Shown here: one piece after another, positions 25,033 through 57,100 of the stretch | Layout: the number at the start of each line of letters is the position of its first letter | Numbering within the stretch: position 1 is the first letter of the stretch | Source: Octopus sinensis | Taxonomy: Eukaryota | Assembly (NCBI RefSeq): GCF_006345805.1 | Contig: NC_043006.1 | Location: forward strand, 50,716,001-50,780,000 | Length of the DNA: 64,000 nucleotides | Direction: 5' to 3' | Notes under the pieces: generated by a model | Seen by the model: the letters and a program-made list of their open reading frames with translations, nothing else | The model's database searches: none | What the model was told of the DNA's origin: nothing | Program-made: the position numbers and the translations under genes

Positions 25033-26443
25033 TTGGAGCAGGAAAAAAAAACACCCGAGACATCGTACTTTGACAGAAGTCACACACAAGCTTCTGTCAA
25101 TGTACTGAATTGTCACCCGTGGACTGGAGACACACTAATTTGGTTGGCGCAACTAGAGGCAAGCTTTAAAGCCAACAGAATGACAAATGAGGAGCAGAAG
25201 TACTACATCATGCTTAGTAATTTGCCTCCACCTCTAAGCAATGAAATCATAGATCTTTTACTGAACCCTATGGAGCCAGTTTTGTATTCTTCGATTAAAG
25301 AAGAAATATTGAAGCGTACGTCAAGTTCGAAGCAAAAAGAATTCGCAAAATTATTTAACAACGAAGAGCTGGGTAGTAGAAAGCCACACAGTTTCTACGA
25401 AGGATGAACGAACTGCTTGGGAATCAGCAAATAGAGGAATCATACCTCAAAGAGGTATTTTTCAATAAACCGCCGCACAAAACCCAAACTTTGCTCTCGG
25501 CCGTAAAAAAACAGAATTCAATTCAGCAGTTGGCGGATCTCGCAGACGGTATTTTGGAGTTATCGTCTAGAGAAACTATTAGTGCGATTCCATCTATTTC
25601 AAGTGAAATACAAGAGTTTAAAAAATTTTACGAGAAACAATTCGACGTATTAACGAAGAAAATAGAGAGCTTACAACTTGAGAGAAACGGCCGCTCCGAT
25701 CACCAAAATTATACAAGATGGCGCAGGAAATCAAAGAGCCCTAGCTTGAAAAGAAACACCATATGTTGGTATCACGCTAAATTCGGAGAAAATTCTTTCA
25801 AATGCATCAAACCCTGTGCGTTTGATTTCCTTGCTAAAAAAAAAGGGAAATTCGGAAAACTTCTAAACCATAGATTGGAGGCGACGAAGTCTGTGGATAA
25901 CATTATAAAAAGTCGCGTGTTTTTCATCTACGACCTGAACTCGAAAGAAAGATTTCTCGTGGATACAGGAGCAGCGTGTTCAATATGGCCTGTAAGGCTC
26001 TTAAAACAAAGAAACCAACCTGTGTATATGACGTTCAAGCGGTGAACCAGTCTGAAATCCAAACATTTGGAGAGATTAGCTTGACGCTCGATATAAATTT
26101 ACGAAGAGAGTACAAATGGATCTTCATAGTAGCGGATTTACCATATCCAATATTAGGAGCGGATTTTTTGGCGCACTATCATTTAATGGTAGATGTGAAC
26201 AAACAAAAATTAATAGACACACAAACCTCCTTAAAGACTCAGGGAATGAGATGCAGGAGAGCAACAATTAGTCCGCTATATTTCATAGCGTCCTCAGAAA
26301 ATAGGTATCACAGGATTTTGAAAAATTATCCAAAAATCACAAAACAGTTAGCTCTAAATACCACGTGTGCACATTCGGTAGAACATCACATCACCACACA
26401 AGGACCACCGAGTTTTTCTAAGCCGAGAAGATTATCTCCATAA
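25033..26443 (+). pseudogene. Gypsy gag-protease (frameshifted)
   Basis: W..QLEASF, EELG.RKP and CWYHAKFG...KCIKPC in gag; FLVDTGA aspartic protease; PILGADFL. Confidence 0.9.
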
Positions 26444-26449
26444 AAATTG

Positions 26450-27515
26450 AAGGTAGGTCATTTACTTTATTCACTGACCATAAACCATTAACATATGCAT
26501 TAAAAAATTCTTCGGAGAAATATTCTCATAGAGAAATTAGACATCTTGATTTTATTTCACAGTTTACTGTAGATATACGTTATATCAAGGGGGTCGAAAA
26601 TTCAGCAGCGGGTGCACTTTCTAGAATGAATGTAGATGCATTAAACTCATTAAACACTATAAATTTGGAAGAAATGTCTAAGGATCAAGTTACGGATAAA
26701 GAATTTTCTTTATATAAAAATTCCGATTCAACTGCTTTAAAATTTAAAATGTTGCCGATACATTGGTGTAATTCACATATTTGCTGTGATATTTCTACAG
26801 GTTTTTCGAGACCATTTGTGCCTGAAAAGCATAGGAAAAATGTTTTTTCTAGCCTACATAATTTATCTCATCCATGTATAGAAGCTTCGTTAAAGTTATT
26901 ATCAAGTCGTTTTGTTTGGCCTGGCATGAATAAAGATATTCGTTCATGGGAAAAGTCATGTATGCAATGTCAGAAATCTAAAGTGCAGCGGCACATCAAA
27001 GCACCATTAGGTACATTTGCAAATCCTGATGCGAGATTCCAACACATCCACATCGATATAGTGGGACCCTTACCTCCATGCGAGGATAATATGTATTTGT
27101 TGACGTGGGTCGATCGCTTTTCGAGATGGCCCGAGGCTTATCCGATTAAAGACGTATCTGCAGTAACTATAGCAAAAACTTTGTTTACCAATTGGATGTC
27201 TAAATTTGGCATTCCGAATACACTGACAACAGATCGTGTTAGACAATTTGAGTCTAGCTTGTTCGCAGAATTCAATAAATTGTTGGGGGATTAATAGAAT
27301 TCGTACAACTTCATATCACCCACAGTCTAATGGAATGGTAGAAAGATTCCATAGACAGTTAAAAGCTTCAAGAACTTATTCTAATTCTAACGATTGGCTG
27401 GAGGCTTTGCCAGTGGTATTGTTGGGAATTAGAAGTGCGGTTAAAGAAACTATACAGTATTCTCCGGCTGAACTTTAGTACGGAACAACATTAACTCTAC
27501 CTGCTCAAATGTTCG
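26450..27515 (+). pseudogene. Gypsy RNase H C-terminus and integrase (frameshifted)
   Basis: FTDHKPL, IRYIKG.EN..A.ALSR; HNLSHP...CMQC zinc finger; HIDIVGP, TTD..RQFES, YHPQSNGMVERFHR. Confidence 0.92.
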
Positions 27516-28812: not shown

Positions 28813-29262
28813 ATATGTATGTACATATATGTATATATATATATATATATTATGTGTTTATGTGTATATGTATGTATACATATATATATATATGTTTGTG
28901 TATATGTATGTATATATATGTATATATATATATATATGTTTTATATGTATTGTAGTATATATAATTATATATAATTTCAACAAATTGAGGGCAAATTAAT
29001 TAATTATTAATCAATTTTCACCAAGTGTTCAGTATGCAAGGGACCATTCAAGGCGAATTCAAATTATTACATTATATAAAAGGGCTTAGTAAAATAAATT
29101 ACTTTGCCGCATACTGAACTCATTAGAAATAGCAGCTAAAAAACTTTTTTAAAGCTATTTCTAATACTTAAAGAAAATCTCTCTCATATATTAGTGTTTG
29201 CTTAATTCAACTCACAAAAGTTTGGGGGTAAGGACATCGAAAAATCAAATGCTAAGGTTATT

Positions 29263-29314
29263 TGAGAACGTACGTTTCAAGATTAGTCAAAACAACACTT
29301 CTATCATCAGCTCA
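29263..29314 (-). ncRNA. Putative minimal type I hammerhead ribozyme
   Basis: Reverse complement of 29692-29743. Confidence 0.6.
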
Positions 29315-29691
29315 GAAATTCCTTGGTTTGGATTTGAAACACTGAAAATAAGAACATACCTTTCGAAGATCTGCTCGTAACTAACAGTGCCAACAAATTC
29401 AAATAAGCAAGCGAAGAATCTCTGTTTCTCCCCTTTCCACCAGCGTGGGTTAAAAATCATCAACACTATGCTTATTTCGGTAAATCCGAAGTTAATCAGA
29501 GGAGATTAATTAATCAGAAGGGCAAAATTATTAATTATCATTTTCACCAAGGTTCAGTATGGGACATTCAAGGCGAATTCAAATATAACATTATTAAAGG
29601 GCTTAGTAAAATAATTTAGTTAGTTTTACGAGCAGATCTTCGAAAGGGTATGTCTTATTTTCAGTGTTTCCAAATCCAAACCAGGAATTTC

Positions 29692-29743
29692 TGAGCTGAT
29701 GATAGAAGTGTTGTTTTGACTAATCTTGAAACGTACGTTCTCA
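29692..29743 (+). ncRNA. Putative minimal type I hammerhead ribozyme
   Basis: tgag CTGATGA t-aga-agt..act-aa-tct-t GAAA cgtacg T T ctca. Stem I is tgag/ctca, stem III is palindromic and the triplet is GUU. Confidence 0.6.
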
Positions 29744-30230
29744 AATAACCTTAGCATTTGATTTTTCGATGTCCTTACCCCCAACTTTTGTGAGTTGAAT
29801 TAAGCAAACACTATATATGAGAGAGATTTCTTTAAGTATTAGAAATAGCTTTAAAAAAGTTTTTTAGCTGCTATTTCTAATGAGTTCAGTATGCGGCAAA
29901 GTAATTATTTTACTAAGCCCTTTTATATATGTAATAATTTGAATTCGCCTTGAATGGTCCCTTTGCATACTGAACCACTTGGTGAATTGATTAATAATTA
30001 ATTAATTTTGCCCTCAATTGTTGAAATTATAATTAATCTCCCTCTGATTAATGCTTCGGATTTTACCGAAATAAGCATAGTGTTTGATGATTTTAACCCA
30101 CGCTGGTGGAAAGGGGAGAACAGAGATTCTTCGCTTGCTTATTTGAATTTGTTGGCACTGTTAGTTACGAGCAGATCTTCGAAAGGGTATTTTCTTATTT
30201 CGTCAGTTTCCAATCCAACCAAGGAATTTC

Positions 30231-30282
30231 TGAGCTGATGATAGAAGTGTTGTTTTGACTAATCTTGAAACGTACGTTCTCA
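30231..30282 (+). ncRNA. Putative minimal type I hammerhead ribozyme
   Basis: Identical to 29692-29743, 539 bp downstream. Confidence 0.6.
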
Positions 30283-30621
30283 AATAACCTTAGCATTTGA
30301 TTTTTCGATGTCTTACCCCCAAACTTTTGTGAGTTGAATTAAGCAAACACTATATATGAGAGAGATTTTCTTTAAGTATAGAAATAGCTTTAAAAAGTTT
30401 TTTAGCTGCTATTTCTAATGAGTTCAGTATGCGGCAAAGTAATTTATTTTACTAAGCCCTTTTATATAATGTTATTATATATATATATATATATGTTTAT
30501 GTGTATAGGTATAGAATATATATATATATATGTATGTGTAATATATATATAATATATATGTGTTATGTGTATATATATAGATATATATAATATTTTATGT
30601 GTATTATATATAATCTATATA

Positions 30622-36340: not shown

Positions 36341-36655
36341 ATCGGAATTTGTTTTAATTTTGTTTTTGGAAAAGGGGCAGGTTATATTTTTTCTTTTTTT
36401 TTTTTCTTTTTTTAAATTCCAAGTTTTATAGTGCCCTCCAATTCTTTTACACTAAATTCCGATATAATCGTAATCTACATCATTTGAAAAGTAATTGTAG
36501 GAAATTTCATCAAAATTATTTGATATATTAAAGTTATGAGGAAACAAATCGGCAAGGTACAAATGTGTATGTATGCCGATCGATCGATAGATAGATAGAT
36601 AGATTATATATATATAGGGATCTAATGGCCTTCTGAGGTTCTACGTTATATATAT

Positions 36656-36687
<32 letters not shown>

Positions 36688-36696
36688 ATATATATA

Positions 36697-36814
36697 TTAT
36701 AGAAGGAGCTTCTACAGGACTAGAACTATTTCATTCAAAAGAAATCATCAGGAAGCATCCTGATGATTTCTTTTGAATGAAACAGTTCTAGTCCTGTAGA
36801 AGCTCCTTCTATAA
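36697..36814. ncRNA. Palindrome encoding putative type I hammerhead ribozymes on both strands
   Basis: Plus strand: agcatc CTGATGA t-ttc-tttt-gaa-t GAAA cag-ttctagtc-ctg TA gaagct. Minus strand: gcttc CTGATGA ... GAAA tag..ctg TA gaagc. Confidence 0.7.
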
Positions 36815-36890
36815 AATAAATTAATTTACTCTGCTATGTATTGAGTACCTTATTTACTGTGGTTAACCCCGACTCAACCCGGACCTATAT

Positions 36891-36961
<71 letters not shown>

Positions 36962-51149: not shown

Positions 51150-52277
51150 TAGAGGGGTTGGACAAAATAATGGAAACAGCTTAAAATTTGAAACATTTAT
51201 TTCAATATGGGGTACGACCGCCTTTGGCAGTAATTACAGCTTGAATTCTACGAGGTATGGACTCGCACTAAGTTTGAATTGTTTTCAAAGGAATTTTTGT
51301 CCATTCTTTAGCTAAAACAGTCTCCAGTTCTTGTAGTGATGATGATGGAGGATATCAATTCCTTACTTGTTTTTTTTCTAAAATGCACCATAAATGTTCA
51401 ATAATATTGGGATCTGGGGGCTGAGGTATCTAGATAAGATGTTCAACTTCACTAGAATGTTCTTCGTGTCATTCAGTAACATCTTTAGCTGTGTGAATTG
51501 GTGCATTATCATCCTGAAAGATTGCGTTTTCTTCCGGAATTTGATCAAATAAAATGCTTAAATAGACCTGACTATTAATTCTGCCATGAAGGGAAACAAA
51601 TGGGCCGACGGATTTCCAAGATATAGCACCCCCCCCCCCCGATCATCACAGATCCTCCTCCATGTTTAACTGGCCGGTGGTCGGAAATAAGGTGCCAATT
51701 ATGTAGGTTTTTACTCCATTCTAAACGCTTGGTAACATTTGTTTTTGAAAGTAGTGGCTTTCTGATTGCACCCCTCCCGTGAAATCCGACTTTGTGCAGC
51801 TCCCGACGAACTGTTTTTGTGGAAACTGTGTTCTTGAGGTGGTCATTAAGCTCTGCAGTAACTTTGGGAGCAGTACTTTCGTGATCCTTTCTAACAATTC
51901 GTGTAAGTGTCCGACGGAGTGTTGTTTCAACGAGGAGGTTTTTCCCCTCTTTCTCAAAGGCAGTCATTACTTTCCAGACAGTACTTCTTGAGACACCAAA
52001 CATTTCGGCTATTTTCGTTGCGCTAACGCCTGCCATACGAGCACCAACAATTTGAACTCTTTGAAAGTCCGATAGATCTGTCATTCTAATGAATTTTAAT
52101 TACCTATTTTCTGATGATATCTGAAAAGAAACAGCAATTTTAGCAAAACATATCAAGCAACACTAACAACAAATAAAGAAAAACATTAAAATAAAGAAGC
52201 TTTTGACGGCTTTAAAGCTACTTCAAAATTATGATGGTATGATGCTAGGTGTTTCCATTATTTTGTCCAACCACTTT
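51150..52277 (-). mobile_element. Internally deleted Tc1-like (DD34E-type) transposon
   Basis: TIRs GGTTGGACAAAATAATGGAAACA at both ends, in TA. Transposase pieces MTDLSDFQR..IVG, VKHGGGSVMI, FQDDNAPIH and PDPNIIEHLW. Confidence 0.92.
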
Positions 52278-54149: not shown

Positions 54150-57100
54150 TGGTGTGGTCAGATAGGAAGCTACAATCCAAGACTTGATTCACTTGGTAAG
54201 ATTGCATCTGTGATGGACAGTAGTTCGTAGATTATTCGCTCATACAAAAGTATATTTTATTCACTAACCCTATAGATTCTAGGCAAACAACGTATTATTG
54301 AGTATTGTGACGAGAATTACAGAATAGACATAGAGGAAAAGTAACTAAAGCTGTATTTTGCTTGGCTTTTCTTGAAATTTCTAACCCCGTTCAAATGCAA
54401 TTCTGAAAGTAACTTCGAATTCAAGTGTCGGAACTGATGAAATGAGGACGAAAAGGAAGACGCGCAATCATAGGTATTTATGACTACCAAATGAATGCTT
54501 GATATAGCAAGTATCTTGTTTTTGAACCGATCGATGTAAATGTCTGACAGCTTTCAGAAAGATTTTGTCGATCACAACCAATCGGAAGTCCACATTGCTG
54601 TTTTAACTGCAGGAAGAAATACTAGTGAATATGAACTTAGAAAATCATTTAACACCATGGATGTTTCTTACTTAGAGCCTAGTTATTTAATGCTTCGTTC
54701 TGCAAATTATTTAGCTTATAATCACTGTCCATACTTTGATCAGCTTATCATAGTAGAACTTCAAAAGGAAAATAGTATTAACATGGAAAGTGGACAACGG
54801 TCTTGTACCAGTACTGCCCATATAATTAATCACATAGCCATTAATATGAAAATGAAAATTTGTTATCATATAAGCTGATAATTGGCAAAATTGCAGTTAT
54901 TGATGACTCAACAAGCTTGAGCATTAAGCTAGCCTAATGGTTTATTTGAAACATAGAAGTATTACGGAGGGTAAACCCCATTTATATATAGACCTAATTG
55001 AACTGCCTACTCAGTCTAAGCATCTGCTGAACTGTCGCATCAACCATTGGTTTGATGACTTTTAATTGAAAAAGAACCTCGTATCATTTGCTGTGATGAG
55101 GTCGAAGCAATGGTGATGCAACAATTCTTAAGGGGCATTATCGTGAGGTGATAATTTGGCATGGTCTTAATTAAAAATTAGAAGTTGCAGAAAGTAATCC
55201 TATGTGAAACGTTTGTGAAATTAATAATTTTCAATAAATTATGGGCAAATATTCTAGTCTAGAAAACCTTCAAACGAAAGAGAATTGTTTGAATGTCTCT
55301 CTTAACTAGAATTACAAATTTTCAAACGTGATCTGGATATCAACGGTGGGTACCAAGTTGGTTTCGAACAATTTCAAAAGTGTGTCAAAATTATAAAACC
55401 CTGTGTTTTCATTGTGACAGAATATAGAAAGGTGAGATTGGATCCGCGAGTGAGAGAAAAAGACATATGGAGAAATGTTGAAGAGACTCTCTTTAGAATA
55501 GTTTTTATTGGATTTAGCTTTAACATATGACACGTTGCATGAACTTGATTTATTGTCAGAATGTTTATGTCTACACAAATGCACTACTACCATTGTTCAT
55601 GCAAACAAATTAATCCACTAGAGAATTAGATTACTGTAAGAATTGAAAGAGAAGCCTGACACAAAACCTCTAGAAGTTCACGATGCATTTCAAAAGAAGT
55701 TTGGAACAAAATTACTTGAACAAATAACAGCTCACTTGTCTCCATTAATCATATAGTTTCTTATTAAGTCTTATAACACAATTTATAGCATTCTATGTTT
55801 ACAGCAACATCCTTGAAAGGTTCTCAAACTTCTTAACCTCAACTATGTAGAAACCAATACAAAATGAAACGTGCGTCCTGATAAATGTAATATCCAGTTG
55901 AAATATTGCCTAATTAAGGAGAAACTGCAATGCCATTGCTCTGTAAGAAGTTTCAGGATTTTCTTCATTTATAATGAATGTCGTGTATAATTATGTGATG
56001 AATCTTCGATGCGTATACCCCAAGGCTTGCGTCCAATATTGAGCAGTTTATGATTTATTCCAATAATACTGTTGAGTGTGAGCGAGAATTCAGTTACGTG
56101 AATTGGATTACAACTTCACATCCAAGAATTGTCATAAATTGTGTATTAACTCTTACGCTCCTTAAATTATGATGACCTTTTCTAGTTCAGTGACAGCGTA
56201 GGCCGTGGAGCACATAAAGATTGTGTTAACACAGATCAGCAGATGGTGACATCAGAAAGTCCATATACAAAATACTTAAAATTATATTCAGACCATTTGG
56301 TAGGTTCGTAGTTCCTTCTAAATTTTAGGTTAAATACACGGTTAACACTTCTTGATTTGCTTGTTTGAGTTTTATATTTTATAATAATTAGTGAATGAAA
56401 CTTCCTCTGTGCAACTGTGCAATACAATGTAATATTAAATAATGTATGTTGTTTGATTTCCACACTGAAGCTCTTAAATATAATGATTGGCAATGAACTT
56501 GTTAATGTTGTAACTATTAATGGTAGTTACCTGTGACATATTCAGAGAGATGAGATGTAAGAAATGGCGAGAATTTGCCAGCTCCGACACCTAAAATAAA
56601 TAACTCTGTATACCTGTTTCAGGTTGTGAAAATCAACGGGCAAGTTGTACCCTTTTCTAGCAGAGCATATAAAAATTACTCCCTCGAACAAATACGAGAG
56701 ACGTAAACCAAACCCATGTAAAACAACATGTGAAGAATCCATCAGACTGTTTCGATCCAGTATTTTGTATTACATTTTCTGTAAGGAGGGTGGGATAAAA
56801 ATATCATTCTATTTTATTGACTATTACTCTAGACTTTTCTGTGAGTCTGTTGACTTCGAATGTGCATTGTGCTTTGCCGTGTGGGTGAGTTAAAAGTCTT
56901 GTGGAAGTTGAGGATATAGAAGGCCACAGTGCTGACTATCTTGTCTGAACTTTGTTTGACTTTAAAATGGAAATGACATTGCTACAAAAGATAACCTTGG
57001 TCGAAGTTACGGCAATGCCAGCAACACAAGTGACAAAAACAGTAGATTACAGAAACAAATTAAAGCGCTGAATGAGTTTTCGGATTAAATCTCTTCACAA

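Follow-up and report, generated by a model that had tools for sequence, protein, structure and literature searches.

Head-to-head hammerhead palindromes in the Octopus sinensis genome and their relation to a Hydra-clade Penelope-like retrotransposon

We analysed a 64,000-nt stretch of Octopus sinensis DNA (hereafter the window; NC_043006.1, positions 50,716,001 to 50,780,000) containing a 118-bp palindrome with a hammerhead ribozyme motif on each strand. Judging from its sequence, this palindrome is almost certainly the smallest insertion class of a Penelope-like retrotransposon (PLE) of the Hydra clade, a degree of confidence that applies to its identity as a by-product of a known element class, the family itself having no match among those listed. 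The palindrome as such is an ordinary PLE by-product, and its value lies in the statistics of its junctions, which are probably best explained by two target-primed cDNAs that would have run off the 5′ end of the RNA at stem I of the hammerhead and would then have been joined head to head.

The palindrome and its parent element

The self-pairing segment spans positions 36697-36814 of the window and includes two mismatches, 36754/36757 and 36728/36783. Folded as RNA, it yields a hairpin with z = -17.6, and none of 200 shuffled sequences was equally stable, so that the near-perfect palindrome reported in the preliminary description is real. If the parent element is numbered from the predicted ribozyme cleavage site (position 0), the arm without a tail (36697-36756, minus strand) corresponds to parent positions -44 to about +16, its outer end being an A/T run that grades into (TA)n, and the tailed arm (36758-36886, plus strand) corresponds to positions -41 to about +88. 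The single base at the junction, 36757, is absent from the parent sequence of either arm, and is likely a non-templated addition. As described earlier, a tail of about 70 bp follows the palindrome, and the unit sits inside (TA)n: the tail measures 72 nt (36815-36886, plus strand), in parent copies runs on into the 5′ UTR and ORF, and here ends at 36886, with (TA)n target sequence on the left at 36647-36696 and on the right at 36887-36958. No target-site duplication could be discerned at the palindrome within these (TA)n flanks.

A search of the 2.7-Gb genome yielded 358 candidates for the palindromic unit, 40 of which were scored and found to be nearly all full length and 93-99% alike. A 32-mer from the start of the tail has 945 exact matches, two hammerhead cores lie back to back at stem I in at least 580 loci, and promoter-bearing ends number at least 1881; as exact-match counts, all three are lower bounds in which the subfamilies are unevenly sampled, and the 580 loci represent the CTGATGA variant only and not the share of short palindromic insertions (stubs) in the whole family. 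Because the palindromes recur at hundreds of loci that differ in their flanks and in their centres, an assembly artefact is ruled out, and a MITE of a DNA transposon is ruled out by the asymmetric tail and by continuity with a retroelement ORF. Two or three stubs with rare variants in common lie within 0.3-1.3 kb at each of four loci (L016, L020, L027 and L028), and L027 includes two-tailed palindromes.

Tracing the copies that are not palindromic in the upstream direction led to a 3′ UTR and an ORF. The tail runs directly into this ORF at 55 places in the genome, the ORF starting about 137 nt past the cleavage site in the parent, and the palindromic unit is contiguous with the RT/GIY-YIG ORF at both ends. 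The overall layout can be seen in L127, which reads pLTR-hammerhead-tail-ORF-3′UTR-hammerhead-tail and has its cleavage sites 4603 nt apart. The parent protein carries RWR at position 38, DKT at 116, YRDDG, CNCPDKTTC (a CxCX5C linker), YIG, CDLC and CMH, and, by eye, resembles the Hydra rows of the Figure S7 alignment in PMC8557442, the features of the clade being RWK-like and DKT motifs, a CxCX5C linker, and CxxC and CxH flanking E and N. In the parent ORF, Pfam recognised neither the RT nor the GIY-YIG domain; Atlas look-alikes of the parent protein at 0.96 contained RVT_1 in 48% and GIY-YIG in 47%, and a BLASTP comparison of the ORF with a Pfam-positive PLE ORF gave an E value of 9e-6. None of the copies read has an intact full-length ORF, all being broken or truncated.

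Partial pLTR tandems, an inverted 5′-truncated copy and a tail at a single end, which are hallmarks of PLEs, are all present, and the motifs, the (TA)n target and the hammerhead near the 3′ end are those of Hydra-clade PLEs (Craig et al. 2021, PMC8557442). Members of that clade are generally under 3 kb, which is a tendency and not a definition (PMC8557442), whereas the unit here, as measured between the ribozymes of L127, reaches 4.6 kb owing to its microsatellite-rich 3′ UTR. Larger insertions, the longest of 11.7 kb, are likewise arranged as inverted pairs in which one end has a tail and the other has none, which places the palindrome at the short end of one series.

A 773-aa open ORF of the Neptune type in L092 (2578-4896) was considered as a partner of the palindrome and rejected, being nested in the 3′ UTR; it is 70% identical to a relative in L094, and the termini are 98-99% identical. 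Other PLEs also nest in the microsatellite-rich 3′ UTR, and in L093-L094 a second Hydra-type ORF and a Neptune-type ORF are found inside one 11.7-kb inverted pair. Tandem arrays of the tail plus the ORF start occur at G000:C9:87420560-87422224 (L225-L229), with units of ~420 nt, and at G000:C16:42874981-42877673, with 247-nt units; both are inverted about a centre, and the unit read from the C9 array also contains a hammerhead. These arrays are retrozyme-like and derive from the end of the Hydra-clade PLE behind the palindrome. Elsewhere in the window we found fragments of an LTR-retrotransposon integrase (26422-27294, plus strand) and of a Tc1-type transposase (51575-52099, minus strand).

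Junctions of the two arms and the end at stem I

The tail is confined to one arm in 92 of 98 short insertions. At a T/A site at -28, both arms carried the same allele in all 56 of the pairs scored among these insertions, where 0.64 would be expected if the arms were independent; 26 arm variants were mirrored, 33 were present in one arm only and none differed between arms, while 2000 shuffles gave at most 12 mirrored variants. The concordance of the arms, together with the one-arm variants, indicates that both were made from one template at insertion, with no later homogenisation. Centres fall into 25 kinds among the 61 that are readable, the perfect AGCT centre being the commonest (27/61). The preliminary description proposed to check whether the same palindrome centre recurs at independent loci, a one-off insertion by-product being the alternative; the palindrome does recur, at 580 or more loci, but not with one fixed centre.

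The position at which the arms end was scored in 95 copies, drawn from the first 100 of the 945 matches listed (98 taken, 3 duplicates removed), a sample that rests on one 32-mer and excludes the largest subfamily. An inverted arm is present within 330 nt in 66 of the 95, and 19 of the 95 extend at least 188 nt upstream. As many as 41 of the 67 copies reaching -44 end within 3 nt, by -46, and 7 of the 26 that pass the -44/-46 zone end within the next 141 nt, so that the end rate is 0.20 per nt at the stop versus 0.002 per nt beyond it. Among the inverted copies ending at the stop (n = 40), 16 are explained by AGCT overlap and 24 were joined otherwise; no preference is seen for joins at the other upstream 4-mers that are self-complementary. 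The cleavage site is the approximate centre of just 18 palindromes, versus the 580 at stem I, suggesting that uncleaved RNA was the main template.

A TATA box, TATAAATG, begins 29 nt upstream of the stop in 91 of 98 parent-like ends, a count biased by the selector, which demanded a near match to that region, and 28 nt upstream in 4. The spacer differs between subfamilies at 12 of its 21 columns. The usual position of a TATA box is -31 to -29, and the chance of finding TATAWAWR in a 4-nt window is about 0.3%. The same stop is found without inversion in L201, L204, L209 and L214, where head-to-tail junctions restart at -45/-44 after a piece of the ORF. The 20 unexplained junction bases comprise 10 G, 8 T and 2 C (p = 7e-4 versus 17% G), a small count made by eye next to which 12 further G junctions are ambiguous; an added G is the trace of a copied cap, and an added T that of a non-templated A. 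We infer from these sequence features that -45 would be the capped transcription start.

According to the explanation that we favour and regard as probable, the two cut strands of the (TA)n target would each prime one cDNA, the tailed and tail-less ends would represent two RT start sites, and both cDNAs would run to the capped 5′ end of the RNA at hammerhead stem I. The template would be uncleaved RNA, probably a single molecule or RNAs of one locus, and the cDNA ends would anneal, most often via the self-complementary AGCT of stem I, leaving an insertion without promoter and ORF, a transcript through which would fold as a long hairpin. The PLE RT is not known to have an RNase H, so that one RNA could serve twice. 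Among the 60 scorable copies of the 66 with an inverted arm, 23 have the longer reach in the tail-less arm and 17 in the tailed arm, and in 20 the two are equal; two cDNAs primed at the two target nicks, at the two start sites, and both running to the cap, would account for all of these classes. The PAc Poseidon element in vitro (Frangieh et al. 2024, PMC11167929) cuts and extends both strands of an AT-rich target and uses uncleaved RNA, with two RT start sites, one on either side of the tail, in likeness to what is inferred here, although its ORF starts inside the ribozyme and not past the cleavage site.

The concordance of the arms in 56 of 56 pairs and the mirrored variants would fit equally well if one cDNA molecule (or one antisense RNA) folded back on itself at the stem I AGCT and copied itself into the second arm, and the frequency of the perfect AGCT centre speaks for such a fold-back as well; self-priming has been proposed for head-to-head PLE palindromes (PMC3846280), and antisense RNA for rotifer PLEs. 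We nevertheless consider it unlikely. In 23 of the 40 asymmetric joins the tail-less arm has 5′ sequence that is absent from the tailed arm and that a tail-primed cDNA cannot supply, a loop-less centre is no hairpin, the self-complementary 4-mers further upstream are not preferred, and the end at -45 recurs in non-inverted junctions.

Another reading, to which we give rather little credence, retains the PLE by-product but explains the -45 boundary, which adjoins the ribozyme, by splicing to an acceptor there, by RNA processing or by arrest of the RT. The bases at -45/-44 are AG and could be used as a splice acceptor, and in D. virilis Penelope, the promoter of which is TATA-less (PMC2377424), an intron ends at the 5′ end of helix I (PMC4209133). 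This reading is also favoured by two other hammerhead repeats of the same genome, which likewise give a few back-to-back palindromes in the region of stem I. Taken as controls, with counts of 5 and 3 (raw, unscaled to family size), these repeats do no more than suggest that the pile-up at stem I is specific to the PLE family of the palindrome. On the other hand, no upstream exon sequence is common to the junctions, the pyrimidine run is not conserved between subfamilies, the TATA spacing and the extra G are left unexplained, and the RT would already have opened stem I on arrival.

The first of the control repeats (L232-L249; 5 palindromes) is a second Hydra-type family with another hammerhead, having a long stem II and a palindromic stem III, and with no TATA box at -30. 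The other, with 3 such palindromes genome-wide, is found in (TA)n at 28970-30480 of the window, has a palindromic loop III, and consists of one inverted and two tandem copies, with cores at 29275-29310 (minus strand), 29696-29731 and 30235-30270 (both plus strand); it is likely a second PLE family.

It is very improbable that the palindrome is a non-autonomous mini-element which the PLE protein re-mobilises whole. Hundreds of copies 93-99% alike and the neighbouring pairs with variants in common (L016, L020, L027, L028) would agree with it, but the 61 readable centres fall into 25 types, the most frequent of which is shared by both -28 subfamilies, the variants of the stubs match those of the long parents, there is no promoter inside, and changes confined to one arm never pass down together as a group.

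Hammerhead motifs on both strands

The preliminary description also proposed hammerhead ribozymes on both strands with a common stem I strand. The motifs are indeed present, with CTGATGA..GAAA cores at 36760-36782 (plus strand) and 36751-36729 (minus strand), and on each strand stems I and II are 5 bp and 3 bp long, respectively, and stem III closes GTA. On the plus strand, the type I motif (36754-36804) is made up of stem I (36754-36759/36799-36804, with one A-A mismatch), the core at 36760-36766, stem II (36768-36770/36775-36777), GAAA at 36779-36782 and stem III (36783-36785/36794-36796), with predicted cleavage after GTA, at 36798. The mirror motif on the minus strand (36707-36757; core 36751-36745, GAAA 36732-36729) has a 5-bp stem I and a stem III in which G-U replaces C-G, and would be cleaved between 36713 and 36712. 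The stem I strands of the two motifs overlap, but by 4 nt only. The Rfam hammerhead model, proposed earlier as a check, gave no match in the 64,000-nt window at the gathering score, and none at E<=10 on the palindrome locus or on one parent copy; the ribozyme call therefore rests on the motif, its conservation and its likeness to published Hydra hammerheads. The miRNA matches returned by Rfam at the locus were only of a generic hairpin type and below the gathering score (MIR9486, 84 bits). Core-like CTGANGA..GAAA matches at 52111-52131 and 54434-54453 of the window have no obvious stems and are probably due to chance.

An alignment of 90 parent ends shows recurrent variants in 0 of 38 constrained hammerhead columns, versus 12 of the 21 columns of the spacer immediately upstream, and the only variable sites inside the hammerhead are N7 and two positions in loop II, a pattern which speaks for the motif being under selection in the parent. 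Covariation lends no support, since the stems are invariant; loop III is invariant as well, for which the fold gives no explanation. In computed folds of the parent RNA beginning at -45, the hammerhead lies 2.7-4.5 kcal/mol above the ensemble, and a competing hairpin over the cleavage site (equivalent to 36793-36813 in the window) may keep the template uncut. Two of the 18 short palindromes stop at the cleavage site with no explanation by AGCT overlap, a weak hint of self-cleavage, and in L197 both arms end exactly at the predicted cleavage site, hinting that cleaved RNA is sometimes copied.

In the whole palindrome, the hammerhead fold lies 73-75 kcal/mol above the long hairpin, and 14 of the 33 one-arm changes in stubs fall in the catalytic core (11 of 55 columns), with no depletion relative to chance, on which grounds the stub ribozymes are predicted to be inactive and the product a dead end. 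Of the two interpretations offered originally, a Penelope 5′ inversion at stem I was correct and can be made more specific, the parent belonging to the Hydra clade and the stop at stem I being a preferred one. The other, a tiny ambisense viroid-like ribozyme element with RNA switching between hairpin and cleaving fold, is practically untenable even though a full core exists in both polarities and both cores are kept at the 580 loci, for the energy gap leaves hardly any room for a switch, the polarities do not appear to be both foldable and under selection as in ambisense viroid-like RNAs, the core is not spared by one-arm mutations, the centres vary, longer and non-palindromic family copies are also present in the genome, and the parent PLE explains everything.

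Relation to known elements and significance

Many of the published Hydra hammerheads in File S2 of PMC8557442 have T..T (U-U) at 10.1/11.1, as here, and one has an identical ACAG/CTGT-A stem III, but the hammerhead of the palindrome's family differs from every row listed there, and its loop III has 8 nt versus 1-3 in the listed Hydra hammerheads. The sections of that paper covered make no mention of mass-produced 190-bp stubs. Inverted 5′-truncated copies and an optional tail have been described in PLE insertions (PMC8557442, PMC3846280, PMC2377424), as have (TA)n targeting (PMC8557442), palindromic head-to-head junctions (PMC3846280) and, in Schistosoma, opposite-strand hammerhead pairs 100-700 bp apart (PMC4209133). 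The insertions studied here share with these published copies the head-to-head arrangement, the tail at one end and the junction palindrome, and differ from them in that the junctions pile up at one position and in the length of the tail, about 65-70 nt versus 30-40 in published PLEs.

Non-LTR retrozymes and ambisense viroid-like RNAs are also small and have type I hammerheads, but retrozymes are head-to-tail tandems with a hammerhead per unit, whereas here a single head-to-head unit is dispersed and predicted to be inactive. Twin priming of L1, in which two primers on one RNA lead to inversion, and the strong-stop DNA of LTR elements, a short cDNA which runs off the capped end and then jumps, are comparable to the mechanism proposed here; in L1, however, the joined segments stem from parts of the RNA that do not overlap, whereas the arms here copy one 5′ segment.

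A start site at stem I, or the joining of two cDNAs in PLEs, was not reported in the literature searched, most subscription papers and Repbase reports lying outside its coverage; nor was there a published account of the stop statistic (41/67), although supplements outside the search may describe such stubs. How the inverted and tandem ends of PLEs are formed and the pseudo-LTR is regenerated is stated to be an open question (PMC8557442, PMC2377424, PMC3846280). Hundreds of near-identical stubs provide junctions at base resolution, which separate the models of how these ends arise and single out the base at which transcription is predicted to begin. The stubs also score as miRNA-like hairpins and as two-polarity ribozyme pairs, and may therefore mislead searches for miRNAs and viroid-like RNAs.

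We tentatively propose, as a possibility somewhat short of an even chance, that the hammerhead is the first thing transcribed in a PLE and that PLEs make strong-stop cDNA, with the RT starting 65 or 135 nt from the cap; the run-off product would either join a second cDNA, yielding stubs and inverted ends, or jump back into the RNA, yielding partial tandems with a regenerated pseudo-LTR and promoter. If this is true, a sense template alone would explain both the inverted and the tandem structures of PLEs, and the stretch from cap to tail would be the functional equivalent of the retroviral R region.
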